Part shown: one piece after another, positions 728 to 49,017 of the stretch
How positions within the stretch are numbered: position 1 is the stretch's first letter
Layout of the letters: each line of letters opens with the position of its first letter
NCBI GenBank assembly: GCA_036785375.1
Contig: JAWMAR010000033.1
Coordinates: 11,408,001 to 11,472,000, forward strand
Direction: 5' to 3'
DNA from: Leucoraja ocellata
Lineage: Eukaryota
DNA length: 64,000 nucleotides
The notes under the pieces: model-generated
What the model was told of the DNA's origin: nothing
Database searches by the model: none
What the model saw: the letters and a program-made list of their open reading frames with translations, nothing else
Made by a program: the position numbers and the translations under genes

Positions 728-950
728 GTGTTTGAAGGAACTGCAAATGCTGATTTAAACCGAAGATAGACATAAAAAGCTGCAGTAACGCAGCGGGTCA
801 GACAACATCTCTGGAGAAAATGAGTAGGTGACGTTTCGGGTTCAGAGGTTCAGACTGAAGAAGGGTCTCGACCCGAAACATCACCTATTCCTTTTCCCCA
901 GAGATGTTGTCGGACCCGCTGAGTTACTGCAGCTTTTTGTGTCTATCTTC
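728..950. mobile_element. Short PLE-derived hairpin element with hammerhead core
   Basis: Inverted arms ~762-840 and ~871-950; core at 855-882; flanking repeat aataccttatttt (715-727) / aatactttatttt (951-963). Confidence 0.85.
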
Positions 951-1039
951 AATACTTTATTTTATCAGCTAAGATAGGATATATGATGTCATTTTGTATA
1001 TGCTTGAGTTGGATGGATGGTTCCGATCAACACTTTGCA

Positions 1040-1560: not shown

Positions 1561-4500
1561 CTAATTCTGTAAGTAGAGCGGGATATATGGTCTGTAAAAG
1601 TAGAAAAATGAGGAAAGAATCTGAATAAAGCTCTGACCAAATAATCAGAGGGAGATGTAAAATAGACTAATTGCAACATTATTTTTATTTTATGTAATTT
1701 CCAGGTTTACTCCACATAAATATGAAGCAACGGTGCTGAGGGTTTATCCTTTTCTGCAGCCTTGTTAAGGATTACAAATATGGAGCTCAAAAAGAGGATG
1801 TATTATTGTTAAAATTAAAGACATTAGCATTTGCCATTAGCTCCCCTTAAATGCGCATCTCCTTCACTTTCTTCTTAAAGGGTTTGCCATATACGGCAAA
1901 TGTAATCCCATAATGGTTCTGTGATCACTGAAGTGCTGCCGTTTCATTAGACGTAAATCAATTGTGTAACAAAACCTGAGCGGAAACAAATACACTCTGA
2001 AGTCAACCTGCTTGAACCATCCATTAACATATGACAGCCTTTTATTTGCATATTAGAATAGGCCTGGCCTCTCCAGGGACAGGTTAACCCTAGTGATAGC
2101 TACACTGCTAATGAGATTTAATTCCTTAATCCAATAAATAAATCGGCATGGCTGTATACAGTGGCTGTTTGAAAACTCTGCCAAGAAATGGCCAAAAGGC
2201 CATGATTATAAACATGTTTACATTCTACCACATTCCACTGAGAAAGCTTCACTACTGCTCTGGTCCAGTTCATCAATCATAACCAGGCGTTACACTTGGT
2301 ACTGTCAATAATTTGTTGTTCAATATTGCCCAAACATATGTACATAAGGCCAGGGGTTTCATTCTGTGCCCCGTTGAAAAACCTGAACTGACTGCACAGG
2401 ATTCTTAAACAAGTGCTTCCAGGCTAACCTCCACAATCAAATATATACACGGTAAAATGCATACAATGTAGAGCAAGGAAAACCAATAATTACTATCTGT
2501 TGGTGCTGTCTTAAGTTATGATAAATTGGATGTTCCAAATATTTCACATTTACTGACCCATAATCAGATAGTTTCATGTACACACCGCATGAAGATTTTT
2601 CTTTTACATTTAATAACTGAAAACACATTCCCAAAGATCTAATTTAAAATTTGATATTTTTAACACACTATTAGAATTTTGTTGGCAATCTATTTTATCA
2701 TGCCAACCATGCATTTTGTTTTAAGAATGTAGCTTTCAAAATCATATTATGGATGAACATTTAATCGAAACACTTCATAATGACATGACTAAGTAATGCA
2801 GGGGAAAGAAAAATCAGCTTATTAAAAATGTGCATGACAAACGACGGCTTTGAATGTTTTGATATTATTTATGGCAATTTATCATGGTTGTTACATTTTT
2901 GCAATTTTTGTTAAATAAGTAAAAATACCCAATTTTATCAAATAATGTTAATATTGAACAAAAAATATCCTCCAAATGGAACTGAAAATATAAATTCATG
3001 TATCAGGAGACATTTTGGTCTTGATTTTATTTTTAAGAGTTTGTTGGCAGTAAAGGGTTGGGTGAGGAGATGTACATAATTCATTTTCCCAGCAGGCACA
3101 TCAGTTCCCCAAATATCGGGACATCAAGGGCAGCAATTGGGCCCCTGGGCAGGGCACCATCCAGAGAAATGTCGCCCAATATTCAGAAGTTGTGGCTCAT
3201 GATGCGATTGACATGTGACTTTAACTCAAGCGGATTCCTAGACTATCTTCAGCTGGATACACAATAGGAACTGCAGAGAAGATGTTTCACTGTACCTCAG
3301 TACACGTGGAAATAAAATAAACTGGGTATATCTGACAAACATCCATTTGATTGAACTTCTCATTACTCAGAATGTAAGCATTCTGCCCAAACTCCACAAG
3401 GATAGCTAAAAACAAACTGCTGGAGGAACTCAGCGGGCCAGGCAGCATCCGTTGATTTAAATAGTCAGATGACATTTCAAGTCTGGACCTTTCTTCAGAG
3501 AATCACATCAGTAGGTTTAGACAAGAACATTAATGAACAATTCACAGCTCCTCAGTGAATGTTACAAGATCATCCAAAAAATACAATTTATAAAAGAACG
3601 AATGTTTACTGTGTAGAAATGTTAATAGAACATGAAATAATATGCTGGAGAAACGTAGCAGGTTGAGCAGCATCTGTGGGTCAAGAACCAACAATGTTTC
3701 AGATAGAAAGCCTACATCAGTACGCAGCTTGGCCTGTTGACTTCCTCCACCAAATTGTTTGTCGTTCCAAATTTGAGCATCTGCAGTCTCTAGTGTCTTC
3801 AGTTAATAGAACATATTTGACTATGAGCACGTTGTGTGTGGTAGTTTGCATCAGCTGATACTGCAGTAGCCTCAATCTCGGCCGTGCTGTTACTGTGACA
3901 CATTTAGATGAGGCTCTATATCTCTCATGAGTATTCTTAATCAAAGAATCAAGGGCTGTTACAAAGGCTATTCACTTGGAGGAATCAAGTGTATCTAAGC
4001 AGTGGAAGGCCTACTCAATGGAATGTAGTAAGAAACAATTTGGTGTTAAATAGACTTCTTAGGCTGTCATTAAAGCAGCAGGTGCTTCCCACAGAGAGGG
4101 TTGGTCTTGCACTCACAACTCAGTAACACATTTAAAAAGCAGTCTGCTTGGGATTGAGAACAGGTTGCTACTTTACCCAGTCTAACTATGATGGGATGTG
4201 GCCGGAGAAATGCAAGGAAACAGCACACATTGAAAACGAAATGAGTGTCGAAACAAGAAATAAGGAAAAGATTAAGGATAAAGAATTGTTGCAGAATTTG
4301 CAACAAAATTAATTGTGTGGGAAGTTAATATCCGCTTCAATCAACTGATCTGTGTAAATTATTGCCTCGTCCACTTCTGATAGAGAAAGCCCATGGATCT
4401 CTATATTTTAATTTCAACCAGTGGTAACATGGAAGTGATTTTCCCCAAACCTATTTATTTACAGCAGGAATCACGATAGGAACATTACATTGGAAAACAT

Positions 4501-8811: not shown

Positions 8812-8912
8812 GGTGTAGGAATGAACTGCAGATGCTGGTTTAAACCGAAGATAGACACAAAAAGCTGGAGTAACTCAGCGGGACAGGCAGCATCTCTGGA
8901 GAGAAGGAATAG
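8812..8912 (-). mobile_element. Short PLE-derived element, truncated solo
   Basis: Family consensus; perfect 13-bp flanking repeat gcaacacaaataa at 8799-8811 and 8913-8925. Confidence 0.85.
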
Positions 8913-8967
8913 GCAACACAAATAATGTTTGCTGAGTCTTCCACACCCATTGCCCTGTCCTTAGACC

Positions 8968-9434
8968 CACTCACCTACCCCCACACAAACGCACCCACAC
9001 ACACACAGCCACATACACATATACCCACACAAACACTCACACACACACCCACACAAACACACCCACACGCACACAGCCACACACACAGCCACATACACAC
9101 ATACCCACACAAACTCACACAAACACACTCACACAAACACCCACACCCACACAAACGCACCCACACACACACCGCCACATACACACACACCCACACAAAC
9201 ACTCACACACACACCCACACAAACACACCCACACACACACAGCCACACACACACACATACCCACAAACACACTCACACAAAAACATACACGCACACAAAC
9301 ACAGCCACGCACACATTCCCACACAAACACGCCCACATACACACACAGCCACACACACACACACGCACACAGCCACACACACAGCCACACACACACACAC
9401 AGCCACACACACACAAACACACAGCCACATACAT
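8968..9434. repeat. CA-rich degenerate microsatellite
   Basis: (CA)n interrupted by ccc/aaa/gcc. Confidence 0.95.
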
Positions 9435-11612
9435 TTTAAGGTCACTTTTTTAATTCACCAGTTGGAATTCCTGGTGTGAAGAGACTTTTAGAAAATGAAC
9501 AAGGAAGCTGAAGTGGGCAGCTGACAGCTTTAGCATGAAGGAGGCAAGTCATTTGTTCTTGAGCAGCCAACCAGGAGAAGAATGAGAGTCAGAAGGATCC
9601 CCATTTTGTCCAAGCATTGTCAAATCAGTGAAAGTAAATCTATAAAAAGTGCCACACGTTGGGGAAAGTTACTTTGCAGAGAATAATCCTCTCCTCTGAA
9701 CTCTTTCAGCTAAGTGTCTGTTGGAGAGTACATTTACGTTTTAATACTCCTCATTAAAAGGCACCTCATTTATGTTCCTTGTAATTGTTCAAAAAGTAAA
9801 TGTTTTTTCTTTTTTTCCTTCTATACCTTTAACCTTCAATTTTCTTTCTTTACTTTCCAATTGGAAGTTGCTTTCCTTCATTCCCAGCTGGCTCTCCCTT
9901 TTTGGGGACATCTGCAAATTGACGTTCCTTGACCAAGTGTTATCCGGAGAAGTTTTTGTCACAAGCAGCATAATTTAAAATGTAGATTTTTTCATGAACA
10001 AGGCATTTTTGACCTACACTGATGTCAATGTTTCCATGAACATCAGAGTGTGTCAGTGTTACAAACTTTGTTCAGTGGTTAGCAGTCATATTTCTGAGGC
10101 AGAAAGTTGTGGGATTTAAGTACATCAGAACAAATTCCACTATGATATTAATGTGTTAAGAGACTGGTGCATTGCAAGGAATGATATGTTTATGAACTAG
10201 ATGTTAAATCAAGGCAGTATTTGCCTGTTTAAATGATCAACGAACCTGTGGCTCTAATTGAAGAGGACAACTTTTTCTGTTCAACTGTCTTTAATCAACC
10301 AAGATCACTAAAGACAGATTAAATAGTCATTCATCTCATTGTGGATCATGGAATTATAGTGTGCAATGTGACTCATGTGTGGATATTTCAAAATAATTGA
10401 ATTAAGTACGTGAGCATGTGGATATAATGAAATGTGTCTTTCCTAGAAAGAAAAATGTTGCTTCACCCAAATACCATTGTTTGCCTGATGTTGACAACCG
10501 CTGAGAGACAGGAGCCAGCTCCTCACGTTGAGAACTGTGAAAAACAATAATGCCTCCATATTCCATAACATCTGTGGGAAAATATACTTTTTATTTTGGT
10601 GTAAATTGTTATTTTTGTCCTTTTCTTAGCTTCTATTGAAATATCCTGTCACTGACTGATGAATGATTTCACAGTCCGTCTTTCTCGCTAAGTAACTATT
10701 CTTCCTGCACAAACATGGACGGCCACAATCCATGCAGGGCCTCACAGTTATATCAATTGCCCATATGTTTCTTTAAGCAGAAACCATAAATGTACTGTAC
10801 TTCCATCAGGGTTTCTGAAATAATGATCTGGAGTGGAGGCTGGGAGATCTCTCTCCTCCCACTGCATACCCAAATGGTTGTGTGTTTGAACGGATGATTT
10901 TTTTTGCGGAGTCGTATTTTCCCAAAGCAGAATCAGAGAGGAATTCCACAAAGGTAAGAGCTGGCAAGATGCTCTTATGGGAAGAGCTGTTGCATTTGCA
11001 GAGACAGTAAATGACTAAACATACAGCTATTCAAGCATGTGATATAACAGAGCACTACTGTGCTTCTCAGCTCTAATGCCTCTCAGTTTTACATCCGGCC
11101 TCTTTCAGTAGACTTGTTTTCAGACAATGGACGTACATTGAGGTAAATTTTCTATTCTAACAATGAATGCATCATTTCATCGTCAGGCAAATAAGCAGGT
11201 CACTTGTTTTCCATTTTGTGGTAAACCATAAAGACCAGCTGAAAAACAACGTTACACATTCACTGTTAATTTGCGTGAAACGATAGGTCAGTCATGATGA
11301 GTAATATTTTATACATGGTGATATTCAGCATTTATTTTAAAGATGTTCATATATCAAGCAGAATAAATAACTGGCACATTTGTCATTGACTGAAACATCT
11401 TATCTTCATAATTAAAATGCAAACCTTCACTGTGTCTGTCCAGGCACAGAATAGTCTCGCTGTATACTTCCCCTCTGGAATGTTAATGGGAAGTGCAGTC
11501 AAATTAATGGAATTAGCTCATTCTTATTCAGGTTAATGTGGTTTTATTAGGTCTCGTGAATCAGCACCTAGTAAATATTAAAATCAGATATCTCAGATAT
11601 CTTGATGATTTA

Positions 11613-11780
11613 TGTAGGAAGGAACTGCAGATGCTGGTTTAAACCGAAGATTGACACAAAACGCTGGAGTAACTCAGCGGGACAGGCAGCATCTGTGGAG
11701 AGAAGGAATGGGTGACGTTTCGGGTAGAGAACCTTCTTTCCTGTCCCGCTGAGTTACTTCAGATGTTGGAGTCTATCTTC
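11613..11780. mobile_element. Short PLE-derived hairpin element, internally deleted
   Basis: Tail plus full arm, then a partial inverted arm (cctgtcccgctgagttac...tctatcttc). Confidence 0.8.
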
Positions 11781-12093
11781 AAAAGAGTAACTGTTGGGTC
11801 TGTATTCCTGCGACTAATGTTTATTTTATTTAACAAAACAAAATGAGGCAAATATGTGAAAACATAAAAGCATCTGTTTAGGAATTGATTAGTCCCATAC
11901 CCTTACTTCAACACAAATATCTGCTGGTAATCCCATTCTACAGGGTCAGGTGGTAGCACATGGTGGAAACACAAGTGCAGCCATTCAGATGTTAGTATCT
12001 ATGTGGAGATAAACCCAGGCTGATCAAAAAGTATTATTTATTTCCTAGGAAGAGGATAATCTTCTCCAGGGACAGAGATGCTAACAGTAAACT

Positions 12094-12675: not shown

Positions 12676-13883
12676 GGTCGAATAACAGAGACTCTTCGAA
12701 TCAACATCATCTATTTTAAATTGGAAATGTTGTGAAAAATCATATTGAGTAGATAGATAACATTAAGTTTCTGTTCCAGAATACGATATCCCAATTGGAA
12801 ATGCCTGATCCAATTTCCAGAGTGGCAAGCAAGAAAGAGGCAATGCCACAACACTCCTGGTTAAACCCATTTTCAGTCACAAGGAGCTGCGTCTGCGTGC
12901 AATCTAATTTTTGGGCCATTATGGATAAATTCCTCTCTAAATTCTGAAGGAAAGAAATGAAAAATCTTGGAAAAAATCTATAGGTTTTAAGCCTCCCACC
13001 TAGCTATTATTATTCCAGTTGGGTTCTGAAAGTAAATTCAAACTGCTGCTAACGTTTGTTGACTTGTGAATTCCTCTTTGTTAATTAAGTTAAAAAATCA
13101 TTGTCACTTTTCATTAGCTAAGCTGCGCCGAGTAACATGACAGACCTCCCATGCCTTGTTTTATTTGAAACCTGATTTTTTAATGACATGTGATGCAATA
13201 TATTGTTCCTCATACCTAATTAGTCTGCAAACACAAAGGACAAACACAGTAATATCAGTGGTGTGTAACATGGCTCAGAGCAATTGCTTAGTGGTCCTTA
13301 GAAAAGGTAACTATTAAAAGGACAGGAAAAAAACTTGTTGTTTAGAATCCTGACTGCCTGTGTGTAGGAGCTGGACAAAGAAATCAATGTGGCATCACCA
13401 ACTTGTCTAAATGTTTATGGCATTTGTATAAAACGCTGTCTCTGCATCAGCAGAATGTACCCAAACTGCTCCTAATTAGGAATGGGAGTATGCTTTCCAA
13501 GTCTAATGGCCATCCCATTAATCTACAGAATGTGTGTGTATACATCATTATTGGTCTATGGCCTTACCAATTATAGACTTACAATAACCAATCAAATAAT
13601 GATTTCTGGGATATAATAATATTGTAAATATATTTCTACCAGTCTTTCATCAAGCACAACCACACATTTGATAATTTCATTGCATTTTTGAAGACTCCTA
13701 CACCCATTTTTAAAATGATATTTCTCATTTCATTAAGTCCTTCACAACAATTCAGTGAACATGAGAACAGACAGATGAATGTTCAGTATTGGTACTCATT
13801 GCCCATGAATAAAGTTTACACACCATCTTGATTGAACTGTCTGACAGGTTTTCTTCTTTCCTTAAAGAGAAATATCCTGAGTT

Positions 13884-13974
13884 TAGACAAAAGTGCTGGA
13901 GAAACTCAGCGGGTGCAGCAGCATCTATGGAGCGAAGAAAATAGGCAACGTTTTGGGCCGAAACCCTTCTTCAG
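13884..13974 (-). mobile_element. Short PLE-derived element, second subfamily (UUCG loop)
   Basis: Minus strand ctgaagaagggtttcggcccaaaacgttgcc; flanking repeat aatatc(c/a)tgagtt at 13871-13883 and 13975-13987. Confidence 0.8.
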
Positions 13975-16900
13975 AATATCATGAGTTGTTCACTGGCACA
14001 CTTTAATGCATCAGCCAAAGTAGGGATCATGATTTTAAAAAATCATTAGCATGATGCCATTACTCTTTGTTTTTTAAATATTTAATACTGGCAGCCCCTT
14101 AAACTATCAGGTACATCACAATCAAGTCTAATGGCATTACCTTGTGACCTCTTCCCAACGTTATCTCAGCAATGGGACTATTGTTTGATCTCTCCACTCT
14201 CCCAGCCATGAACACTAAAGAAGACTGTGGTTTCCTTTCCACCAATGTGGATGAGCACAGTTGACACACTGTGGGCTCAAAGTAAACACTGGGAGTTTGG
14301 TGACCTGGATGATTCACAGGATTTTACTAAATAAAATATTACTTTCAAAGATGTAGCATCAATGAAAGGCCACCATTCATTTTCCTTGAACTGCGTAGCT
14401 TGCTGGGACTTTTTGGAGGGCAATTAAGGGACAAGCATTTGCAATTCTTCTGTGACATTGCACCTTGCAAATCAATTCATAAGCTATTTCACAATTACTT
14501 TATGAACTAATAAAAGGCGCAACGTATTACAACACCAGGCAAAATGGAATGGAATTGTGTTTTATCTGCTTTATCAATTATGGCTAAAAATTATAATCAC
14601 AAAAATGGGGTAAATCAAGTAGTTTTGGAAGCTTACACATTGGAAAGCACCTGGAAGTTGTTATCCTTGATCAAAATGATGAAAAAACAGAAGCTTATCA
14701 AAACCTCTGCATAAACAGATTATTTTTGCATTGCCCTGAGTAGTTAGTGGTACACTGTAAAGGACACGGGTAACATTTATATTGTGAAATATTTGTAAAG
14801 AGATGACATTGCGTGATTAGGTTAGACCCTTGAAGAACAAAGAGAGAATGGAAGGGATCAAGAGGTGGCAGAAACCTGTGAAATGTGTGGACCGTTGAAG
14901 ATTCTAACACAAATAGTTAAAAATGGAATGCAGCCAAAAATGTAATCACAACAAACAGCTGAAGGGGTGGCTTGTAGTGTGACTGGAAACGGGTAGGACT
15001 AATTGGAGGATGCATTCACAGAGCCAGCTAAATATGATGAACTGAATAGCCTCCTCTGTGCTGTACCATTCACCAAAGAAATAGGGAACTAAACTCCAAT
15101 TAAATGTTCAAAATAAAGCTGAGGATTTTTGTTATAAAAGTAGTTCCTAACAAAATATTTTTCAGGCAATTATACCATCAAACCAAAGAACAATAATGCT
15201 TCTCATAGAGTGTCATCTGTGGGTCAATCCTAGCCTGAGTCAGTAGATTACAGCTTTGACCCACTTGGGAGACTAGAGAACAACATCTAGACTGTACTCC
15301 AATGCAGTACATCGTCAGAGGGGTGTGTTTAGAATAAGAAACTAAACCAAAGCCCTTTCTGATGATCTCAGAAAATGTCATGGCATTATTTGGAAGTGCG
15401 GGATATCTAGTCAACAGACTATTTGGTCATTCTCACACAGTTATACCAACTTGCTGCCATGTTCACTATAAGGCTCTTTCATTGTCCTGAAGAGAATGTG
15501 ACATGTACCATTTGTAAGGTGCTACGTAAAACCACAAACAGAAGTGCGTTCTCTCATTGTGCAGGTGATTAGTAAGAGCAATCCCAGTTAGCTAGTTCCG
15601 ACACTTTCCCTGTAGGCATGTTATTCTTTTTAAGTACTTACCCAATCCCTAATATAAGTCATGGTTCAATCTGCTTCCACCATTCTTCAGCAGTACATTT
15701 TACTAATTAAGAACCTGTCATGAAAAGGAAAATACTCACATCTTATTTGACCTCTTTGCCAATCACCTTAAATATGCGTGGCCAGGTTCTAACCCTTCCC
15801 CAATGGGAACAGTTTCTTTACCTTGTCTTGAATGTTTCTACCGTATCTTCCCACAGTCTTCTATGATCTAGCTTTTTAATTGAACTCTCTTGACCTTGTT
15901 GCCAAACAGGTACATTTTTCTGCGCCCATTCTAAGGCTCCTGCATCTTCCTAAAGTACATTCACTTGCTGAACTTTCCAAAAGAGGAAGAGGACATTGCC
16001 AAGCTTAAATAAAACTATAAAACGCTGAAAATATTCAACTGGTTAGGCAGCATCTATGAAGAAAGAGTAATGTAGGTAATTTGGTCACTGAGCCAGTTGC
16101 TATGAATCCTATAATCATATACACTTGTTTCATGTTCAGTCTTATTCCTACAGTTTAAATTGTTCCCATTCTGAGCTCAGGAGGTTCACATTTATCACAG
16201 TGGTCATGGGGTTCCATTCTTGGGGCACCAATGGGGAAATATTGTAGCTGGACTAGATACCCTGCATCATGAGATCTCACACCAGTTTAGCCAAACAGCA
16301 AAATGTAACCAACATTTCCACGCTCAGTTCCGATATGTTTAGCGGTGATGTTGTATTTCATATTTTACAGAATTGGCTATTTGTACTTTTATTTAAGGAG
16401 ATTCTATCGGAAATCTTGAGTTACAGAAGTCTCTGCTGGATGATGCCCAGTCTCCATGGATTCTCCCATGAGGCACTCTGCTTCGTAAGTATCCAATCAA
16501 AAGTGACAGAAAACAAATGTGGCTTGACCCACACACTCCAGGAGGGCGGTTATGTCAGGACATCACGCAGATGAGATGACAACCGTTGTTTTGATACTTT
16601 CTTTGGGCTGTCTTTGATCCACATCAGACAACACAGTGTTACACAGGGTCTGAACAAATCAACAATCCTATCGTTCAGTGTCCGCATCAAATATTCTCCC
16701 TCGGCCCCTCAACCATCTTACTGGACGTCGTGTATTACAGCCAATCCCTGTTTGCTCTCATCACCTGTCAGTTTTGTTCGATATTTTGCTCAAATGTTAA
16801 ATGTGAGGTCGCTAGTCTTTGCTTCCTGCAGCGTAGGTAACAATGCACCCTGCACAAAACATTTAGTTTTAATTAAATCACATAGCAAAGATTGGAGTCT

Positions 16901-17334: not shown

Positions 17335-18419
17335 AACACAAATAGCAGAGAAATGTTGAAGGAACAGTTAGAACAGCAGAAATAGTCAAACCAATAGTAA
17401 GATATGGAGATACAAGGAACTGCAGATGCTGGTTTACAAAAAAAGGCATGATGCTGGAGTAACTCAGTACGGAATGGAAGTTGAGTTTGGTTATTTTGAA
17501 TGGGATCAGGCTTATGTGAAAACCAACTAGCAGCATGGTTGAATCATATACATGTTTACTATTCTGTATTCAAGATAGGCGACATCAGTAATGAGAAAGA
17601 CAGAATTAAAGATTCAGGTTAACGTCAGCAAAACTGACTTTTGATTTTCAACTATCTCTCTGTGTTAGCTGTGCACCATCAGTTGTCTCTGTAAGTCAGC
17701 CAGAGTTTGGGGACTCGGGCATTTTTACCCAGTTAAACACGACAGAGTTGAGCAACACTAGTAAGTTTCCACCAGTCCTGTAGCCAAAGTTGCAACCATC
17801 AAGGCTTTGGTTCCACTCCTTTAAAGAGTGAGACCATGAAGTGTCGTGAAGTATTAGACCCACGTGACTCAGGCATAACATACTCACTCACTGGGCAGAA
17901 TGTTTTCCTAATGATAGGACAGATCTTGTTGTCTGCATAACTCCAGTGCACTGATTGTTTCATTTTCCACTCCTTTGCTTCCTTAAGAAGGCTCCAAGTG
18001 TTATTTTCCTGTGGGTCAGGAGTACGTACTTGTTAACTCACTTAGCATCTGAAATAAAGGCTATGCTTCTGGTGTTCAGACCAGCTCAACCTTATAAAAA
18101 CTCTCTTCTTTTAAAATTTCACCTGCATCTTGAACTGCCAGGCATGAAAGGGTAAGTGTAGCAACTTTTATAAACACAAAAATGAAGGGAAAGTTACTGT
18201 TTTTACATTGCAAGTAGTCAAAGGATTAACTGATCATTCACCTCATTTGGGAAACTCCTGTGATAAATAATAGGGCATCTCCCTTTGACAATAAATGTAT
18301 TTCAGAGATCAGATCAGATCAAATTTATTTCAGCTCAGATTAGTTTGTTATCAGATATACCAAGGTGCAATTAAATTCATGTGTTGCACACAATAAACAG
18401 GCATACAGTATTGATAAAT

Positions 18420-19758: not shown

Positions 19759-20060
19759 AAGTTCCTGTCGTGATAATCTGCCTCATGCTCCTCCTTCCTC
19801 TGTTAATTCATGCCATATTGTCACCATACAAATATTTGTTTTGTGCCACCACTGGTTCTTTTGGCAATTACCTTGTCCTTGGCTCCTCCACCAAATGTTT
19901 TTGTCCAGTTGCTCCATCCATGCCCTTCAGGATTGTAAATACCTCTCACGTGCTTGAAATCTCTGCTCTGGGAAGAAGAACAACCCTGCATCTCTATTCT
20001 GTTCTCAGTCCAGAATTAAAATCCTTCATCCCTGGAATCAATGCTACTCATCATTTTCTG

Positions 20061-20160
20061 AAGATAGACACTAAATGCTGGAGTAACTCAGCAAGACAGG
20101 CAGCATCTCTGGAGAGAAAGAATGGGTGGCGTTTCGGGTTGAGACCTTTCTTCAGACTGA
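20061..20160 (-). mobile_element. Short PLE-derived element, solo
   Basis: Family consensus including a degenerate hammerhead core. Confidence 0.8.
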
Positions 20161-21164
20161 GTTTTTCTGTATCCTTTTCTAAAGTATGGTGCCCAGAATT
20201 GGACTTGTGTTGTGGCTGAAGCAGTGTTTTATAAAGGTTCCTCATTACTTCCTTGATCTTGTACTCTCTGTCTTTTGTAACGGAGCCAGGATTTCACATA
20301 CCCATTTTAGCCGGCATATTTTAGGGGCATTTTCTTTGAATTGTTCATGATGACATGGTATTGGTTTGAATGGCTAGTTCCACATTGTATGATTTATGTG
20401 AAACAGTTTGGAGGAAATAATTTAGTTTAGGCTGCAATCATTCCTGATAGTTCTGAAAATGATCCAGATATGGACCAATATGCTGTCTGGACTGGAGTCA
20501 GTCCCATGTTCATATTTGTATAAGTGCTACTCCAATCACTTCATTAATAGTTTTCGCAGTATGACCAGCCAGCGTGACTTAAAATCCTGCAAAAAGTGCT
20601 GCTGTGTGTATTCGATGGCTTTTAAGTGATTGTTCACTTTATTCACCTAACCATTACTTTGTGCAGCGAGAAAGAGCACGCAAACTGCTGACAAAAGTTC
20701 TAAATCCCTTTTTAAGAGTTTCTAGCTGTCTCCTTTTGAGTATCTCTGAAGCTAATCTTTGAATAAGAGAGAGTGGAGTGGAGCCTGGAGTGTTACTCCT
20801 GCCGGGTTAATAGGGGCTAATGAAGTTTGGGTTCCACTGTTTGTTTTCTTAATGAGTCTAACGCAGAAACAAAGGTTACCGGGAAGCACAGTGCTGAAGT
20901 GATGGGCCCCTGTTGTGAATGCATTTTGTATTGCTTTGGTTGATGGGTTTATATCACTAACTATAATAGATGTTTTGAGTTTGTATATCAGTGAAATGAT
21001 CTTTAAAATATTGTCTCACTTCCTATTAAAATGTATTGTCCACATGGGGTTTTAATAGTGCTCTGTGATGGTATGTGATCTACAGACTTCAAAATATTCC
21101 TGATAGACTCATCTTTCTGGCCCTTTTCACCCATTGTTGTCCTGCACAGATTATAAAGAATGTG

Positions 21165-21257
21165 AAGAAGGGTCTCGAACAGAAATGTCACCCATTCCTT
21201 CTCTCCAGAGATGCTGCCTGTCCTGCTGAGTTACTCCAGCATTTTGTTTCTATCTTC
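21165..21257 (+). mobile_element. Short PLE-derived element, solo
   Basis: Family consensus; flanking repeat attataaa(g/c)aatgtg at 21150-21164 and 21258-21272. Confidence 0.82.
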
Positions 21258-22595
21258 ATTATAAACAATGTGTTGAGCAACAATTTGGCATGAGAAATGA
21301 AGGAGTAGAAAATCTTATCACATTCTGAGCCATCATACATTAAACATAACAGTGGTTTAGACACAGTCATCTAACAGTTAATTAGTATTTCCAAGATTTT
21401 GATTTAGGGAAGAATGTTTGTCAAGGCCCCAGGAGAGGTTTCATAAAACATGGAGACTTTAACATAAATTAATCTAATATGGAAAAGGACATGAGATGAC
21501 TTGAAAATAAAACATGGCAGTAATATTAAAATGAGTTTAATCCAAGGATTGAAAATATAGAATCAATGTGTGTGTACAAAGTAATAAAGGGCTGTTGTAA
21601 GATTCTCTCGCGGAATAAAGATAAAAGACAAAAAGTGGTGAAGTGGTGGCTCACTGGAGCAGTTAATGATGACGGAGATTCAAAGGAAACTCTTAGATCT
21701 GATCTAGAGCTACTTAAAATCTACATTGATTATTTTATTGAGGGCAATGTTAAATTCACCCATTCTGATATTGATTTGATGCTAGCCGAGATGTTAAGGT
21801 GTGAGAAAAACGTAAAGATCTGCAAAGAGTTAAAATTGGTTATGTGCTTGTCTAAGTAAATGCCAAATGAAGGATAATGTGGGTATGTGTGAAATGATGC
21901 TGTGATATGGAGAATGGAACAGTTGAATAATGTTAGAAGATGCTTGGGCAGGATTTCAGCATCGGGTAACCAGAAACTGAATAAGGGGATAGTTATGCAT
22001 GAGAAGAAATATTAAACCCAATTGCAAAAGACGACACATGTGGAAAGGAAGAGATTACTGAAAGTAAACTGGGTTCCCATAGAATCTAGTAAGAAGAAAA
22101 ATAAACTACAATGAAGATTCAAGAAAGGATAGAGATAGATCTACTTTCAGAGAAGATAACAACAAAGAAGGAATTGTGGGAACCAAGTGTATACGAGAGT
22201 GAGGAAGTAGTGTACATTAGTTAAAAAAATACTTGAGCTAAAAGCTGGTAACCGCAGACTTAACGGCCCCTCACTATCGTTTTAAATGAGAGTCTGCAGT
22301 CAGGGTTAGTAAAGGATTTCATCTTTCTAAACCCTCTTGATTCTAGAGTGGACCTCACGTATTGAAAGATAGGAAGTGTAACCTTGCTAAATAAGATCAA
22401 AGAGATTGATGGAATATAACTAAAATAAGTTTGACCAAAAGGAAGAAAAATGTCAAAATGTTTTATTAAGGACATAGTAACAGGCCCAGGAAAGGTCAGG
22501 TAAGTCAGTATGGTTTTGTGAAAGGAAAATTGGCGAGGGAAAAATCTAATAGAGATTTTACTGGCTAAAGATCGTAGAGTAATAAGCCATAGATA

Positions 22596-23387
22596 CAGCG
22601 GCTTGCAAAAGTATTCATACCCCTTGAACTTTTCCACATTTTGTCACGTTACAACCACAAACGTAAATGTATTTTATTGGGATTTTATGTGATAGACCAA
22701 CACAAGGTGGTGCATAATTGTAAAGTGGAAGGAAAATTATACATGGTTTTCACATTTTTTTACAAATAAAAAACTGAAAAGTGTGGCGTGCAAAAGTATT
22801 CAGCCCCCCTGAGTCAATACTTTGTAGAACCACCTTTCGCTGCAATTACAGCTGCAAGTCTTTTGGGGTATGTCTCTACCAGCTTTGCACATCTAGAGAC
22901 TGAAATTTTTGCCCATTCTTCTTTGCAAAATAGCTCAAGCTCAGTCAGATTGGATGGAGAGCGTCTGTGAACAGCAATTTTCAAGTCTTGCCAGAGATTC
23001 TCAATTGGATTTAGGTCTGCACTTTGACTGGGCCATTCTAACACATGAATATGCTTTGATCTAAACCATTCCATTGTAGCTCTGGCTGTATGTTTAGGGT
23101 CGTTGTCCTGCTGGAAGGTGAACCTCTGCCCCAGTCTCAAGTCTTTTGCAGACTCTAACAGGTTTTCTTCCAAGATTGCCGTGTATTTGGCTCCATCCAT
23201 CTTCCCATCAACTCTGACCAGCTTCCCTGTCCTGCTGAAGAAAAGCATCCCCACAGCATGATGCTACCACCACCATGTTTCACAGTGGGGATGGTGTGTT
23301 CAGGGTGATGTGCAGTGTTAGTTTTCCGCCACACATAGCGTTTTGCATTTAGGCCAAAAACTTCAATTTTGGTCTCATCTGACCAGA
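22596..23387 (-). mobile_element. Tc1/mariner DD34E transposon, 3' half (Passport-like), one frameshift
   Basis: WSDETK...[32 protein letters not shown] (34 residues between D and E), ends KGGSTKY*. TA at 22594-22595 followed by a CAG terminus. Outer and inner direct repeats TGCAAAAGTATTCA near 22603 and 22789 (IR/DR type). Frameshift near 23230. Confidence 0.95.
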
Positions 23388-23700
23388 GCACAAGAACAGG
23401 CCCTTCAGCCCACAATGTCTGTGCCAAACATGATGCCATGACCATATCTTGTCTACCTGCACATAATCCATATCCCTCCATTCCCTGCATATCCATGTGC
23501 CGATCCAAACGTTTCTTAAATTGTTAAAAGGGTCATGCCATTATTGTATACTTTTCCTTATATTTGACCTCCTAAATTACGACACCTCACACTTGCACAG
23601 ATTAAACTCCATCTGCCATTTATCTACCTGTTTCTGCAGCTGATCTATATCTCACTGGTCAATTGACCCCAGCAATCTTGGTGTTGTCTGCAAACTTTAA
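23388..23700 (-). mobile_element. CR1 LINE fragments truncating the Tc1 element
   Basis: aacaggcccttcagcccac CR1 tail motif in reverse, plus ORF2 remnants. Confidence 0.7.
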
Positions 23701-23868
23701 AAGATTACATATGGAAGTTGTACACAGGTTAGGTCTTATGTAAAAGAAGATATTTATCTTTAGAAGTGTTGGAAATAGGAGGTTATACTGGATTGAATCT
23801 TATGGTGAGAGGGCAATTTGGAAAGTCTATATTTTTTTCAGTTTAGAAAAGTGAATAATAATGATATT

Positions 23869-24004
23869 GTAGACACAAAAAGCTGGAGTAACTCAGCAGG
23901 ACAGGCAGCATCTCTGGAGAGAAGGATTGGGTGACGTTTCGGGTCTCTACCCTTTTTGGCTATCTTCTGTTTAAACCAGCAGCTTGCAGCTCTTTCTTAC
24001 ACAA
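23869..24004. mobile_element. Short PLE-derived hairpin element, internally deleted
   Basis: One arm plus the inverted end with its tail. Confidence 0.75.
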
Positions 24005-25224
24005 TAAACATATTGAATTATATATTTTTAAATCCATTTTGACGGTGGATCATGATACTGACTCCCTTGACTGGAAAGTCCAAGAGTAGGAACTATGATA
24101 TCAGATTGAAGGTTTGGTCATATAGATTAGAAGTACATAATAGCAACAACATTATGCTTGACCATGAAGTGTTTGATACATGTATTGAAAACTGGGATTA
24201 ATAGAGCGTGTGATCACATGATGCAGGAAGAGGATGGGAATGTGGAGTTGATGAAGAGCCTTTCCAATATTGGAATTGTGGAGTAGGATAAGAGATGAAT
24301 GAATGGTCTTCTATTATCGGGAACCAAGAGAGCGCTCTTGGCAATATCACATCTTCATACTGAACCGCAATGCTGACACACATTTCACATTCCTAGAGAC
24401 ACAAGAAACTGGAGATACTGGAATCTTGAGCAATACACAAAGTACTTTGGAACTCAGCAGGACAGGCAGCATCTGTGGAAATAATGGACAGATTCGGTTT
24501 GGGACTCTTCTTCAAAATGATTTAATATTGCTAAGTGTTTACTGCGGAAAGAAAAAACAATTGGCAAGACAGATCTACGGAAATGTTTATGCTTCACGTA
24601 AGCTTTCTCCAATCCTTCTTCACCAGCGTTCTCTTTGATCCTCTGCAAAACTGAAAAGGGAAGTGCAGGGCCATTTAAAATCACCCTTGGCACCACTTCA
24701 ACCATTTAGGTTTTAATTAAAACAGTTCATATTTGCAGCCATGGAACTTGAGTTGTATAAATCCTCAATGTAGAAAGGCTTTATACTTTTAAAAGTAAGA
24801 TCCATTATGTCAGGTATACCTACAATACAGGCTGAAGTAGAAATGTTGCCAGGCTATGGTTAACCTTTAAATCAGCAATTGTCACAATGCCACATTACCG
24901 TCTGCATTGAATCCCATCGTGGCAGAAAGAGAAATAGTGAGATCTTCAAAGACTCAGTTTTAACTGGTCTCCAATTTCTTTCATGTACAGAAATGTTTTT
25001 GTACATAACATAAATTACATTTTAAAACGCAATCACTAAATGGGATTGAATCTTTTGTTACCTAAATTAGCTCTGGGCCCCAACATATATGTGTATAGTG
25101 ATGATAAACAACATGGTTTGAGGCTCTGTACAAAATTCTTCAGTGCATTCGAAGTCTGTGAATAATTATAACTCTTGTTAATTAAGGCTTTAAGCAGACA
25201 ATTGAGGCTGGCTTTACGTTAAGT

Positions 25225-25812
25225 GTGATACAGTGTGGAAACAGGCCCTTCGGCCCAACTCGCCCACACCGACCAACAATGTCCCAGCTACACTAGTCCC
25301 ACCTGCCTGTGCTTGGTCCATATCCCTCCAAACCTGTTCTATCCTTGTACCTGTCTAACTGTTTCTTAAACAATGGGATAGTCTCAGCCTCAACTACCTC
25401 CTCTGGCAGCTTGTTCCATACACCCACCACCCTCTGTGTGAAAAAGTTACCCGTCAGATTCCTATTGAATCATTTCTCCTTCACCTTAAACCTATGTTCT
25501 CTGGTCCTCAATTCACCTACTCTGGACAAGAGACTCTGTGCATCTACCCGATCTATTCCTCTCATGATTTTATACACCTCAATAAGATCTCCCCTCATCC
25601 TCCTGCGCTCCATGGAATACAGACCCGAGCTACTCAACGTCTCCCTATAGCTCACACCCTCTAGTCCTGGCATCATCCTCATAAATCTTTTCTGAACCCT
25701 TTCAAGCTTGACAATATCTTTCCTATAATACGGTGCCCAGAACTGAACACAATATTCTAACCAAGGTCTCACCGACGTCTTATACAACTGCAAGATGACC
25801 TCCCAACTTACT
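25225..25812 (-). mobile_element. CR1 (HER1-like) LINE 3' fragment
   Basis: LYKTSVRPWLEYCVQFWAPYYRKDIVKLERVQKRF...RRRMRGDLIEVYKIM is the CR1 ORF2 C-terminus, followed by its 3'UTR. Confidence 0.93.
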
Positions 25813-25824
25813 ATACTCAAAAGG

Positions 25825-26051
25825 CTTGAGTAACCCAGCGGGACAGGCAGCATCTCTGGAGAAAAGGAATAGGTTGCAATTTGGGTCGAGACCCTTCCTC
25901 AGTTCTTTCTCCTGACTCTCAGTCTGAGGAAGGGTCTTGACCCAAACGTCACCTATTCCTTTTCTTCAGAGACGCTGCCTGTCCCGCTGAGTAACTCCAG
26001 CACTTTGTGTCTATCTTCGGTTTAAACCAGCACCTGCAGTTCCTCCCGACA
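25825..26051. mobile_element. Short PLE-derived hairpin element
   Basis: Inverted arms; core ctgaggaagggtcttgacccaaacgtc at 25924-25950 (G of GAAA missing); tail at the right end. Confidence 0.85.
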
Positions 26052-26197
26052 CGTCCTTTCCCTTCATGTTGCTGTGGAGTCTGAGGCATCCGTTGACTTA
26101 GGGAGCCGCACAGTCATATAGCATCAAAACAGGCCCATGCTGATTTGTGGGTGGATTTTCCTTTAACTGTGTTTCTTAATGTTCATCCCATCCATCC

Positions 26198-26610
26198 CCA
26201 CCTCACTCCCACACAACAGCTCACCACCTTACTCCACCACCTCACTCCCACACAGCTGCTCACCACCTTACTCCACCACCTCACTTCCACACAGCTGCTC
26301 ACCACCTTACTCCACCACCTCACTTCCACACAGCTGCTCACCACCTTACTCCACCACCTCACTCCCACACAGCTGCTCACCACCTTACTCCACCACCTCA
26401 CTCCCACACAGCTGCTCACCACCTTACTCCACCACCTCACTTCCACACAGCTGCTCACCACCTCACTCCCACACAACAGCTCACCACCTTACTCCACCAC
26501 CTCACTCCCACACAGCTGCTCACCTTACTCCACCACCTCACTCCCACACAACAGCTCACCACCTTACTCCACCACCTCACTCCCACACAGCTGCTCACCA
26601 CCTCACTCCA
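26198..26610. repeat. 39-bp minisatellite
   Basis: Unit caccacctcactcccacacagctgctcaccaccttactc, about 10 copies. Confidence 0.95.
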
Positions 26611-27276
26611 ACATCTTACTCCAACACAGCTGCTCTTTGCATATCAAGGATCTTCAAACTAACCAGTTCATTTTGTTTATATTATTTTGGAAAAATGATG
26701 TTTGCCACGCAAAGGTTGCATTGTCCAACTGCTTGGCTGGAATTTAAAGATTTGCAAATAATATACCAGTCTTTTATGAAAATACACAAATGTAGAAATC
26801 ATTTCAATTTATTTAACAGCTTTAGGCTACAAAAACAGCTTTAAAAACAATTAATATTATATAGACATCTTGTTAAAGAACTCTCATATAACACCTTAAG
26901 GCACAATTATTTACTAAAATAGCACACAATTATTTTTCGCTCAATTGAAAAAATAGACCTTTTTTAGAAATGTTATATCACAGCTCTATGTTCTGTATAT
27001 TACATAGGGCATTATATATTCAGCATTCCTTGACCTGAGTTGCAGATATGCACAATAAAACAAGAACATGCTCACATGACAGTGATTTACCGAGTTAACA
27101 CACACATCAGATTTTCTCTCAGTGCTAGAAATCAGTTTCCAATTCTGATGTAAGATCTGCAGATAAATATTCATCGGATTTTTTTTTAAAGTGTACTTCC
27201 AGCATTTTCTGTCCCTATTTCAGATTTCTAGGGACATTTGAATTTAAGAGTGGCATCATCAGACTAACAGGCAGAG

Positions 27277-32419: not shown

Positions 32420-32670
32420 AGGGCTTATTTGAAATTAGGGAAATCAATGTTCATATTGCTGGGCTGTAAGTTGCCCAAACGAAATATGAGATGTTCCTCC
32501 AATTTGTGTGTGTCCTGACTGTGGCAGTGGAGAAAGCCCAGGACAGAAAGCTCAGTATGGGAATGTTTGGCAACCGGGAGATTGAGTGGGCCAAGGCGGA
32601 CTGAGTGTAAGTGTTCAGCCAAACGATCGCCCAACCGAAGCTTGGTCTCTCTGAAATAAAGGAGCCTATT
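32420..32670 (-). mobile_element. Penelope-like element ORF 3' end (GIY-YIG endonuclease fragment)
   Basis: GLLYFRETKLRLGDRLAEHLHSVR...KLEEHLIFRLGNLQPSNMNIDF resembles the PLE endonuclease motifs YIGETKRRLGDRFAEH and EQHLIFRLGTLQPxGxN. Confidence 0.85.
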
Positions 32671-36410: not shown

Positions 36411-36488
36411 CTGAAACGTCACCGATTCCTTCTCTCCTGAGATGCTGTCTGACCCGCTAAGTTACTCCACCATTTTGTGTCTATCTTT
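36411..36488 (+). mobile_element. Short PLE-derived element, truncated
   Basis: gaaacgtcacc...ttttgtgtctatcttt arm. Confidence 0.75.
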
Positions 36489-37583
36489 AATTAACCTTGG
36501 GTCCAGTCAGAAAATCATACCAGCCCATGTTCAATTCTCAAATATTACCTGTACAATAGAACTTTTTTTTAAATAATAGTGGAAAAGTTTATAGATCTGT
36601 GAGCTCCTCCTAATGATCCAACTGTATGTTGAAAGGATTTGCAGTTATAATATAGTTTTCTGTTGGTCCCTAAAAGACACTAGGTGGTGCTCATGGAACG
36701 CTACAATGCCAAGGGCTGTCTATTTCACATCAGGCAGCAAAATGAGGACATGTTTAGTTAAGACCACTAGAGACCATACAGATTTGGAGTTTGCTCGGGT
36801 GCAAGAGTTGCCAAAAAGTTTCCTCCTCCTTTCTCTTTACATCCCTTCAAAGTTTTAGAGTTACCGTGATGTCATCCATTGACTTTAAATCCGATGCAAA
36901 CTTTCCTGTCAAGTAGTACTCAGGCCCCAGTTAAAACTGTATCAAAGTCTTGATGTAATAGGATCCAATTAACATAAATCTTCAGGTCTTATTTCAGGCG
37001 ATTGCACCAGCTGTCTACAAAAATCCCGAATAGCACTTGAAATCAGGGGCGGAAAACCCGGGGGAACAAATTACTTTCTTAGATTAAGGTATTTTAGGGA
37101 ATGATTGATTATATCCGTATAGATTTGTAGAAAGAAAACTAGCAGAGAGCAGCATTATTTGAGCACCATTACTCCATGTTGATATATTTATTTTTCTCTT
37201 GCATGAGATTTGTCATCCCAACTGGCCAGAGAATGTACACTAAATCTGAATGGCTAGAACCTAGATATAATCAATATGATTTGGATCATTCATAACTAAC
37301 AATTCAAATATACCAACAACTTGCAATTGAATTTTGTATTTAATCTATGTTTTTGGATTGATTTATACGTTGCTTACTCCTTGAGAAAGATAGACACGAC
37401 TTGTCTTTTCCTTACTTTAAGTACAGATTTTAACAATTATGGCAAGAAGGAGCAGGAGAAGATAAAGAGTTTTATGGATGAAACTAAGAAGGAATGTTAG
37501 GAGCAAATGTGGTGATTTGAACATTTAGAATACAGAAAAGCGGAGTATTAATGAAATGCTCAAGGCCAGATTTGTGAGTTTAC

Positions 37584-37654: not shown

Positions 37655-38529
37655 CTATGGAACATAGGAAAGCAAGAATTAGAAATAGCTACTGCACTGG
37701 AACAAATGTTACTGTACTAGAAATTGCATAGGATCTAAAATAGGCATGTTAAAATGGTGCTGCTCTCTAACACACTAGTTTTACAGAGGCCCTGTGGAAT
37801 ACAAACCAAGGCAGCCTTTGGCCATAGAAAGGCATTACTTCAGCTACCCCTGCCATCGTCGCATTAGTGGCAGAATTCAGTTGGGTGTGGGGATGCATGA
37901 TCAGGTTTGAGGACATTAGTGATTAGACAAAAGACAATAGGTACAGGAGTAGGCCATTCGGCCCTTTGAGCCAGCACCACCATTCAATGTGATCATGGCT
38001 GATCATCCATGAAGATGGGTAAGGAATTCTAAATATATATATCCATATAGGAAAAGTCCTTTTTAACACCACCTTCCTATCTCCATCAGAAAACCCCTCT
38101 CATACGCTGCTGTGTCACAATTGCCTTTGACTAACTTTGTGCAAGCAATCATTCTCTGACTGCAAGCTCCCTGAGAGGGAGTCAAGTTGTCACCGTGCAT
38201 GCAACCACCCATTAACCCACATCCTTCCTCTATAACTTGTAGATTGTTAATGTTGCCATGCCAAGGACTTGGAGAACTCAGAGGTAAATTTGTTTGGCTA
38301 TCTGCAACTATAGTTCTCAAATTGTTATTAAAAGTAATTGTTGATTGCTAATATTTCTGCAGACGGCACAGTGGCAACTAATTATGTAGGTCCTGGGATG
38401 TTTAAATTATGATAGTAATTTGATCCAACTCAAGAGGTTGATTAAAATAACCCATAAGTGCTGGAATAACCCAGCAGGTCAGGTAGCATCACTGGAAAAG
38501 ATTGACAGATGATGTTTTGAGTGGGTTGA

Positions 38530-45536: not shown

Positions 45537-45887
45537 CTGTATCAAGGCAAATAAAATAACAGTCTGTTAAGAATACAAAGTGCTGTAATCACGTGGTATT
45601 CTCTTCTTCCTCCATCATTTCAGCACGGGACTGGAATAACCCCACAACACTTCAGGCCCTGAACATTCTAGGAATAGGAAACATCTTTTAGGCCTAAGAA
45701 ACCTATCCTTTTGAAATATCAGCTGCATATTCTGTAATTCCTTTCTTCCCACAATAAGATCACTAAGGTTGCTTTAAGCCACCCCCTTCATTACCTTCTC
45801 ATCAGTATCCTTACTTCCCATCTGCAGATTGGATCTGATGTGAATGGATCACAGCTCGTCATTCTCCCACTCAGTATTCATGCAGAA

Positions 45888-46114
45888 AATAGACACAAAA
45901 AGCTGGAGTAACTCAGCGGACAGGTAGTATCTCTGGAGAGAAGGAATGGGTGACATTTCGGGTCGAGACTCTTCTTCAGACTGAGTCTGAAAAGGGATCT
46001 CAACCCACAATGTCATCCATTCCTTCTTTCCAGAAATGCTGCCCGTTCACTGAGTTACTCCAGCTTTTTGTGTCTAGCTTTGGTTTAAACCAACATCTGC
46101 AGTTCCTTCTTACA
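45888..46114. mobile_element. Short PLE-derived hairpin element in a PSD4 intron
   Basis: Inverted arms plus tail; perfect 16-bp flanking repeat cagtattcatgcagaa at 45872-45887 and 46115-46130. Confidence 0.9.
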
Positions 46115-47324
46115 CAGTATTCATGCAGAATAACTAGCAGTAAGTAGCCTTGCACTGGCTCCAATGGGCTAGCATATAAGTAGCTGAGACTATTTGATTA
46201 TTATTAAGGTTTTGACATGATCCTTACTTTGGTTTCTGACCTCTGACACGAAGGCTAGCCCTGAAGCACCGTGCTGAAAGAACAGCTGCCCAGAGCAGAG
46301 TGAAGCAACTGCTTTAATTGCTGTTTTTGTAAATCGCTGCTGTATTATACGTTAAAAGTAACATCTATGACGACTATTTTATTGATACAAAATAGCATTG
46401 TAATTAGATCATCAAATATTTTAAGATTAAAAACGGAATGACTACACACTGAGTCACATATCCTTGCATGACATCTGGCATCACGTGCCAAATACTATTA
46501 ACAGGAATACCACAGCTTTATTTAATGTGAGTAGATGTAACAAAAGTCCAAGCAGTTGTAGAAGCTTGGACCTTTGCAGCTTTGTGGTTGGCAACCTATT
46601 GATTGCACTAGATGCAGTCAAGCAAATTAATAGGAAACCTCACTGTTTGTCTTCAAATGGCCCTCTGGCAGCAAGATCAATGAGAGCAAGATCAATGGCA
46701 CAACACCAACATGAGAACAGTGCCCAAAAGCTTCCATATAAAGGTTGTGGAAGCCGCTGCTATGATCTTAAGATTTCTATGCCCAAGAAAAAAGTAATGA
46801 CTTCAAAGCTGTTGGGGGGGGGGGGAGAGGTGAGGAGGGGCAGTAAGGCTAGAAAGCACCAATTGGACAAGCAGCTGAGCATATAGGTGCCAGCAGAGCA
46901 ATAGATAGATAGGACATTGCATACTGTAATTGCTTCAGATTTAGGAAATCCTGGCTGTTTTAAATGCAAAGCCAGATAATTCAATGTGCAACTTGGAGCA
47001 TTGCTGAGGACATTTTGTTTAGTGAAGAATGGGTGGTAGCCAAATGGCCTTAAAAATAAAACACAGCCTAATTTTTCATGAAGCTCAATTAAAGATAAAT
47101 CATAAAAGTAACTTTTAAGAATAAAACAAAACTAAAAGATATCATTGGTCTATTTGCATCGATAAATAGGAGTACCCCTGTACTGAATATTATTTGAGGT
47201 AAAGATTTTTCCTTCCGTTGGACATGTATGAATTGGACTAATGCCAATGTCTATATGCCTATCCTATTATCCTTGAGAACATGAAGTTGAGCCACTTTCT
47301 TCAACACTGTGATGAAGATATTAT

Positions 47325-48819: not shown

Positions 48820-49017
48820 TCTATTATGTACTGTTCTACATTCTCAATTTATGGTTATAATTTATGTTAAATTATTCATACCTTCAGACATATATTGTTT
48901 GTTACTCAGCTCATTTCACAATAGTAAAAGGTAATTATTTTGTGCTGATCACTAATTATCCAGCATTGCTAAGTGCTACTATGCTAAACAAGTCAGCTTG
49001 AGTGAGAACATACTTAC

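Follow-up and report, generated by a model that had tools for sequence, protein, structure and literature searches.

Penelope-like elements (PLEs) that carry an endonuclease (EN+) are retrotransposons for which, in the parts of the literature on which we draw, a CX2-5CxxC linker before the GIY-YIG domain marks Neptune or Nematis elements (PMC8557442). An initiator-like motif has been located in a rotifer pLTR (PMC3846280), and an internal promoter was reported in Penelope. Minimal hammerhead ribozymes with a helix I of 2–5 bp are described from PLEs (PMC4209133), and dispersed minimal hammerheads derived from truncated PLEs were already reported in 2014; cartilaginous fish are absent from the portion of the PMC4209133 alignment covered here. 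For PAc (Poseidon, green anole; Frangieh 2024, PMC11167929), the published account includes internal starts of the reverse transcriptase (RT), a protein-assisted hammerhead and uncut RNA as the main template. One Poseidon protein has been reconstituted in vitro in that work. Animal non-LTR retrozymes were found in the one cartilaginous fish sampled in a recent preprint (bioRxiv 10.64898/2026.07.22.740005).

The short repeats of Leucoraja ocellata described here agree with EN+ PLEs of the Neptune clade, as presented in PMC8557442 and PMC3846280, in their single ORF for RT plus a GIY-YIG endonuclease (EN) at the C terminus, the CX2-5CxxC linker and partial-tandem pLTRs. Heavy 5′ truncation, an adjacent inverted copy, a 30–40-bp tail on one end, short target duplications, and an initiator-like motif and palindromic junction in the pLTR are also shared. 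The repeats differ in number, with ~1.2 million loci compared with the tens of thousands cited in those sources for the most abundant PLEs, and in that most copies stop at one spot, the 5′ edge of the hammerhead. The sharp 5′ pile-up and the copy number are the only structural traits that go beyond those described for EN+ PLEs in these papers. Our literature search returned no paper on this pLTR family in rays or on the 5′ pile-up; supplements outside that search may list the family. We consider with good confidence that the repeats are 5′-truncated insertions of the pLTR end of an autonomous Neptune-type PLE with intact copies in this genome, likely made by an internal RT start and run-off at an RNA end that would lie at the predicted hammerhead's edge, and that most of them are likely dead.

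The locus that drew attention to the family lies near the start of a 64-kb window (contig JAWMAR010000033.1, 11,408,001–11,472,000). A sequence-only reading had placed a hammerhead core at 855–882 on the plus strand, and the letters bear this out (C3 at 855, H17 at 882), including the ACAT in place of ACGT in stem III that it had pointed out. The copy has a second defect: base 854 is A and, because A854 cannot pair with A883, there is no stem I. The stem III palindrome and stem I are thus both lost, and the copy does not qualify as a PLE minimal hammerhead. It is a single arm of a fold-back insertion (728–950). The right arm (850–950, plus strand) is a tailless pLTR unit that begins at the TCAG leader and stops at the first 3′ end, and the left arm (728–857, minus strand) is a pLTR unit with a tail and a partly deleted hammerhead. 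A 13-bp target-site duplication flanks the insertion (715–727 and 951–963, plus strand), with one mismatch in the right copy.

A profile built from real copies identified 31 family fragments in the window, which merge into 20 loci, in line with the earlier estimate of about 20 copies and a SINE-like density (~1 locus per 3 kb). The same profile found no match in the reversed 664-kb set, which comprises 264 kb around the window and 40 fixed-position 10-kb stretches of other contigs. A fuzzy search returned nine close copies of the motif. All of the other copies cited in the sequence-only reading are present within a few bases; the 45.9-kb copy has its C3 at 45979, not 45989. The hammerhead is only the first ~35 nt of a 100–137-nt unit, followed by ~65 nt more to the first 3′ end and an optional ~35-nt tail. 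Many copies have core mutations, as had been noted. Among the 15 window copies that span the core region, five keep the core boxes and one passes the full hammerhead descriptor (core at 51200–51173, minus strand).

That copy is the solo unit at 51104–51205, the sole one in the window to pass. Other solo units on the minus strand are at 3402–3499 (old, core boxes kept, stem III changed), 8813–8917 (with a tail, truncated inside the hammerhead, ~16-bp target duplication), 13875–13975 (a UUCG-loop variant with G12 changed and a 13-bp target duplication) and 20057–20160 (starting from the TCAGT leader, U16.1 changed). The solo unit at 21161–21266 (plus strand) extends from the core onward and has a 15-bp target duplication. 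Further minus-strand copies comprise a decayed unit fragment (16014–16069), a decayed 3′ fragment with a tail (17412–17469), a unit that starts within the core and has a short piece of tail upstream of it (23868–23989), an old unit with a tail and a damaged core (24401–24519) and an old unit that lost most of its hammerhead (38428–38522). The plus-strand unit at 36411–36492 begins at the GAAA box. Head-to-head pairs, with arms on both strands, occur at 3632–3792 (old and decayed), 11612–11790 and 61712–61908 (tail on the minus arm in both), 25811–26052 (tail on the plus arm, both cores damaged) and 45879–46116 (93-nt arms 84% complementary, tail on the plus arm, ~17–19-bp target duplication). 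Two further pairs are compound: the one at 48474–48824 is followed by two more 66-nt tandem units from the GAAA box, and the one at 62805–63085 has one 66-nt tandem unit and a tail on the plus arm.

The 66-nt tandem units recur, at 48676–48824 and 62805–62881 and also upstream of the window in stretches L020 and L018. They begin at the GAAA box and are without the hammerhead's first half, including the CUGAAGA box. Of 320 family matches, 14 start at this model position. They perhaps represent re-insertion into the element's own end.

The window also contains other features. The pair at 25811–26052 is inserted in an open frame (25470–25810, minus strand) that we take to resemble the 3′ end of a CR1/L2-type LINE. 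A Tc1/mariner-type transposase remnant is located at 22814–23523 on the minus strand (Pfam DDE_3, E 7e-11), and near-intact transposase frames of this type were seen in stretches L069 and L081. Minisatellite or simple-repeat blocks at 53950–54800, 26100–26700 and 8900–9480 give rise to long spurious open frames. A gene with PH and SEC7 domains (PSD-like) spans 30795–56537 on the minus strand in 15 aligned coding pieces; it is ~99% identical to a 1033-aa protein, and its best named matches are from rays and sharks. The family copies within this span are intronic, five on the plus and four on the minus strand.

The link to a PLE emerged from coding sequence near the units. In the stretch L025 near the window, the unit comes after a GIY-YIG ORF end and a spacer rich in pyrimidines. 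A remnant of this ORF end, of the same PLE lineage and without its hammerhead, is in the window itself (32428–32670, minus strand); its 81 residues gave 127,117 first-look candidates in the genome. Walking upstream from this remnant led to RT fragments (L073) and then to intact elements (L083). The L083 element has a 1233-codon frame, with RT and, at its C terminus, GIY-YIG, between two direct repeats (pLTRs) with the hammerhead motif in each. Pfam matches to RVT_1 (E 1.4e-6) and GIY-YIG (E 0.013) are both under Pfam's curated cut-off; the GIY-YIG match in L055 has an E-value of 1.7e-4. The L083 protein includes DKG, RYIDD and YIG motifs and a CX4CxxC linker at residue 1100. By this linker, which is shared with Nematis, and not by a tree, we assign the element to the Neptune clade. 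Relatives with the same domains are 63–73% identical in named sharks and rays and ~50% identical in invertebrates. A sequence search of the PDB with the element ORF returned no matches.

The frame differs from those of rotifer elements (~830–840 aa in the sources covered) in its length and in its long Pro-rich N-terminal extension (L083 2258–3760). In L088 and L089 this extension breaks, at about the same point, into two frames that overlap, perhaps through an intron or a shared frameshift. The spacer from the ORF stop to the core (L083 2009–2128) is pyrimidine-rich and intron-like, with GT at its start and CAG at its end; AG also lies just upstream of several fish hammerheads tabulated in PMC4209133. 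In L025 (4418–5416), we noted a ~1-kb insertion in which both arms have the EN end, the spacer and the unit, head to head.

The two direct repeats of L083, 3946 bp apart, have one mismatch in 723 bases, and three-unit tandem arrays of full elements with ~3.95-kb spacing are also present. The best 40 matches of the 5′ ORF part of L083 are all 97–100% identical (40/40). In addition, a 94-nt young variant of the unit has 4,441 exact copies genome-wide, and a control sequence has none. Judged by these identities, the parent element is very young. The main variant in the window trails the end of the EN ORF in L043–L054, and RT plus EN in L073; this variant is the pLTR of older subfamilies of the L083 lineage. 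In every well-sampled variant the unit follows the GIY-YIG ORF stop codon by 96–207 nt, the spacers fall into dissimilar clusters, and 87 of 101 EN ends (overlapping loci kept) have a unit within 450 nt. ORF-linked copies number 17 and 27 for the two commonest haplotypes, and in four copies of the older variant an EN remnant lies upstream, on the strand of the unit. The derivation from a PLE proposed in the sequence-only reading is therefore upheld, since the unit forms both pLTRs of intact RT and GIY-YIG elements, and its non-coding status is not supported, given the position of the unit after the ORF stop in every well-sampled variant. On sequence grounds the short repeats are the end module (pLTR) of a Neptune-type PLE and not a separate non-coding family.

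The abundance was estimated from 40 sampled stretches (400 kb) at fixed offsets on the larger contigs, which are not random draws, and scaled to the 3.44-Gb assembly. These contain 187 fragments at 135 loci and 4.5% of their bases belong to the family, corresponding to ~1.6 million fragments (bootstrap 1.2–2.0 million) and ~1.16 million loci (0.90–1.44 million) genome-wide. The 30 head-to-head pairs in the 400 kb suggest ~260,000 hairpins in the genome (155,000–390,000).

We sorted 182 core-reaching copies by the sequence right before the core, which is unique flank in 83, an inverted copy in 66, PLE spacer in 23, another shared spacer in 5 and a tandem unit in 5. The per-base 5′ stop rate (n = 295) is 0.17 at model positions 1–10, with shoulders of 0.014–0.024 beside the peak, compared with 0.004–0.005 at positions 31–70 and beyond −30. 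Copies with unique flanks match the leader for ~6 nt and then fall to background. The young ends were read from 95 exact copies, the first listed on four contigs, of the 4,441. Among these 95, 39 stop within 9 nt before the core, with a mode of 2 nt, and none stops 19–49 nt before it in a gapped alignment; greedy extension lengths over 12 nt carry C-run indel artefacts (22, 78), gapped lengths below 19 nt overshoot, and each measure was used only over its reliable range. The 3′ ends of the same copies are 0–5 nt past the unit in 60 and 31–39 nt past it in 33, the tail pattern of PLEs. A target duplication of at least 8 bp flanks 21 of 31 solo young copies vs 4 of 542 shuffled pairings; duplications of 9–17 bp frequently flank the insertions. 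One-third of the fragments sit in head-to-head pairs (52, vs one tail-to-tail pair), and many junctions center on the nearly self-complementary TCAG-T-CTGA leader. In 36 of the 52 head-to-head pairs the tail is on one arm only, where 26 are expected (p = 0.005).

Only 4 of 295 copies start at the hammerhead cut site ±2, equal to the background rate, and we reject cut RNA as the template. The insertion ends alone suggest instead that the template would be an uncut RNA starting in the TCAGT leader. Insertions end at either of two 3′ sites ~35 nt apart; by analogy with the in vitro work on PAc, these would be internal RT start sites used at a break where the endonuclease opens the target. Because such a template starts in the leader, the cDNA would be complete after 100–137 nt, and copies of greater length would derive from tandems by way of read-through RNA. 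Head-to-head pairs would arise where each broken strand is extended and the ends of the resulting two cDNAs are joined via the leader. The ribozyme would matter, if at all, only on full-element RNA, probably with protein help. A point against this scheme is that the short copies could themselves be re-copied.

Whether the 5′ pile-up is made by run-off at an RNA end is, in our judgement, evenly balanced. The leader fits the initiator consensus. Insertions most often begin, 2 nt before the core, with a G that follows an A, and not with the A that the initiator rule would choose. The 5′ ends spread over 0–9 nt and are blurred by microhomology, and no cap-derived extra G precedes three-base ends (0/3 outside an inverted tail). 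In reads of three RNA runs and in one contig set, all from other species, coverage of the unit is deep on each strand, which is what a common repeat would give. These fragmented libraries show no start or end pile-up near the core or the cut site, and they are uninformative on start sites and cleavage.

The main alternative keeps the PLE origin and concerns this step alone: the pile-up could arise where RT, copying a longer RNA, stops or switches template, either at the folded ribozyme or at a protein that occupies the pyrimidine tract and CAG. We regard this as possible, though we lean to doubting it. In its favor, the ends are spread and not confined to a single base, the core is immediately preceded by a pyrimidine tract and CAG, and upstream C-runs are kept at some junctions. 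In the parts of the sources covered, a D. virilis intron ends at helix I (PMC4209133), and self-priming at palindromes was proposed for inverted junctions (Arkhipova 2013). A cut at the splice site, however, predicts ends 1 nt before the core, which holds for 1 of 37 young ends, yet among 63 older solo copies the match to the leader is just 1 nt long in 18. Spliced ORF-to-core joins are absent among the 83 unique flanks, and the hammerhead fold is predicted to be 8–14 kcal/mol less stable than other folds. No GT-AG joint was found among 15 listed of 114 joints in the RNA data from other species. Splicing as a way to lengthen stem I was also considered and set aside: candidate donors near the ORF stop pair no better, by eye, and the 83 unique flanks include no spliced genomic copy.

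A strict minimal-hammerhead descriptor, the test suggested with the sequence-only reading, has 14 matches in the 664 kb, all in this pLTR family (14/14), and none in each of three shuffles. Rfam returned no hammerhead match at E ≤ 10, only weak miRNA matches. The core boxes, the extra base after A9, G10.1–C11.1, the palindromic 15.2/16.2 and UH are present in the majority of copies and in the intact elements. The PLE-type core that had been recognized from the letters fits the consensus in the PMC4209133 supplement: like the PLE hammerheads there, it has CUGANGA with one extra base, G10.1–C11.1, GAAA, a palindromic CG at 15.2/16.2 and UH, and most motifs are dispersed single truncated copies. 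It differs from the table in that paper in its 4-bp stem II, and its 2-bp stem I has U–A or U–G beside the cut site, where the 2-bp examples given there are G–C pairs. Stem I is indeed 2 bp, as had been cautioned; both pairs are weak, and the predicted pairing probability of helix I is near zero in the monomer. Position 1.1 is A or G, both able to pair with U2.1, the changes being one-sided only, and covariation was not above shuffles in an alignment of 14 rows.

Across four copies, the intact element included, the hammerhead fold is predicted to be 8–14 kcal/mol less stable than the best fold. Core decay was counted in 150 copies that span the core region, leaving aside 170 shorter matches: 64 keep the core boxes, and 34 keep the core, stem II and the palindromic stem III. 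Before base matching, the core shows fewer mismatches than the sequence behind it (5.4 vs 9.0%, p = 2e-4), and in the UUCG variant fewer than the flank (0.7 vs 6.0%, p = 0.003), but the core is A-rich, so that bases have to be matched. With base matching, core and flank of the main variant are not significantly different at A (4.8 vs 7.0%, p = 0.13), G (6.8 vs 7.5%, p = 0.88) or T (5.4 vs 8.9%, p = 0.23). G12, the general base of the hammerhead (PMC6155905), is changed in 28 of 112 copies, at the rate of other CpG bases. Purifying selection on the dispersed cores is thus rejected: dispersed copies of the main variant keep the core no better than base-matched flank. As the hammerhead fold is predicted to lie so far above the best one and the core decays like the flanks, single copies are likely inert, and the motif of the parent would need a partner or protein. 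Such help is reported for other PLE hammerheads in the parts of PMC4209133 and PMC11167929 covered. Most dispersed hammerheads are likely dead, predicted motifs.

The TCAGT leader and core boxes are identical across three spacer clusters with at least seven members each, which fits selection on the active lineage, yet good conservation extends to the 60 nt behind the core. Folding of L083 2125–2262 with aligned copies predicts a conserved 8-bp helix between the middle of the unit and the tail, a 4-bp hairpin, and pairing of the core with the 20 nt that follow, all without covariation support. Such structure may serve to place the two RT starts or to hold the ribozyme inactive.

We think it improbable that the repeats form a non-autonomous SINE- or retrozyme-like family whose short units are transcribed and copied alone by the PLE enzyme, with the ribozyme under selection. 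The ratio of short to long copies is very high, since only 23 of 182 core-reaching copies continue into the PLE UTR, a start signal may lie inside the short unit, and the 66-nt tandem units are a recurring type. Rotifer pLTR sequences alone mobilized other DNA, as reported in PMC3846280. Against this, ORF-linked copies exist for each well-sampled variant, and those of the commonest haplotypes and the older variant speak against a SINE-like lineage of its own without a coding counterpart. The core decays at the pace of its flanks, and the 66-nt units lack the CUGAAGA box. The PAc protein needs RNA beyond the RT start, which the stumps would lack (PMC11167929). The family resembles animal non-LTR retrozymes in its type I hammerhead, there derived from a PLE pLTR, but retrozymes as described in the preprint are tandem repeats with a hammerhead per unit, whereas copies here are solo or head to head and the 66-nt tandems are without half the core. 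A retrozyme identity fails on these grounds: the copies do not form tandem arrays of cores, with only 5 same-strand core–core neighbors (195–370 nt apart) among 165 core-bearing matches, and the copy ends are not at the cut site (4/295).

A role for the host, in which it retains copies to regulate its RNA by functional ribozymes or hairpins, is very unlikely. The 34 of 150 copies with core, stem II and palindromic stem III kept, the estimated ~260,000 hairpins and the copies in PSD gene introns speak for it; against it, there is no excess conservation of the core, neither strand is avoided within the PSD span (5 plus, 4 minus, a very small n), and there is no clear A-to-G (ADAR) scar in the 52 pairs, two of which have 4–5 changes on one strand. 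A DNA transposon or MITE whose terminal inverted repeats merely resemble a hammerhead is scarcely credible: many copies are 190–240-bp palindromes with target duplications, but most are single arms, paired arms are unequal (tail on one), the descriptor has its 14 matches vs none in shuffles, and the continuity of the unit with the RT–EN ORF in linked copies refutes this reading.

The reading of the repeats as 5′-truncated pLTR-end insertions of a PLE can be set beside PAc, as described in PMC11167929. Both have two tail-defining 3′ ends, possible extension of both strands, a hammerhead near the ORF start and no genomic sign of cut RNA as template. PAc belongs to another clade, its ORF starts inside the hammerhead and its RT starts are in the ORF, whereas the first ATG of the long frame here is ~165 nt after the core; the 5′ pile-up at the ribozyme edge is not among the features described for PAc in that account.

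A young intact Neptune-type element is thus accompanied by thousands of exact stumps with ends readable to the base. Given so young a parent and so many exact short insertions, models for the RNA start, the RT start and the junction are directly testable here. Tentatively, and a little short of even confidence, we suggest that the stumps correspond, for PLEs, to strong-stop DNA: RT would start ~100 or ~135 nt into a capped RNA that opens with stem I of the ribozyme, run-off would end the cDNA, which inserts, leader joining of two such products would make the hairpins, and the hammerhead would be a switch at the 5′ end (cap removal or folding) and not a cutter of the template. If true, one element thereby wrote ~4.5% of a vertebrate genome and ~260,000 hairpins. 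The PLE origin of the repeats also means that a few percent of batoid DNA, along with many miRNA-like or MITE-like hairpins, consists of PLE stumps, which annotation can mistake.
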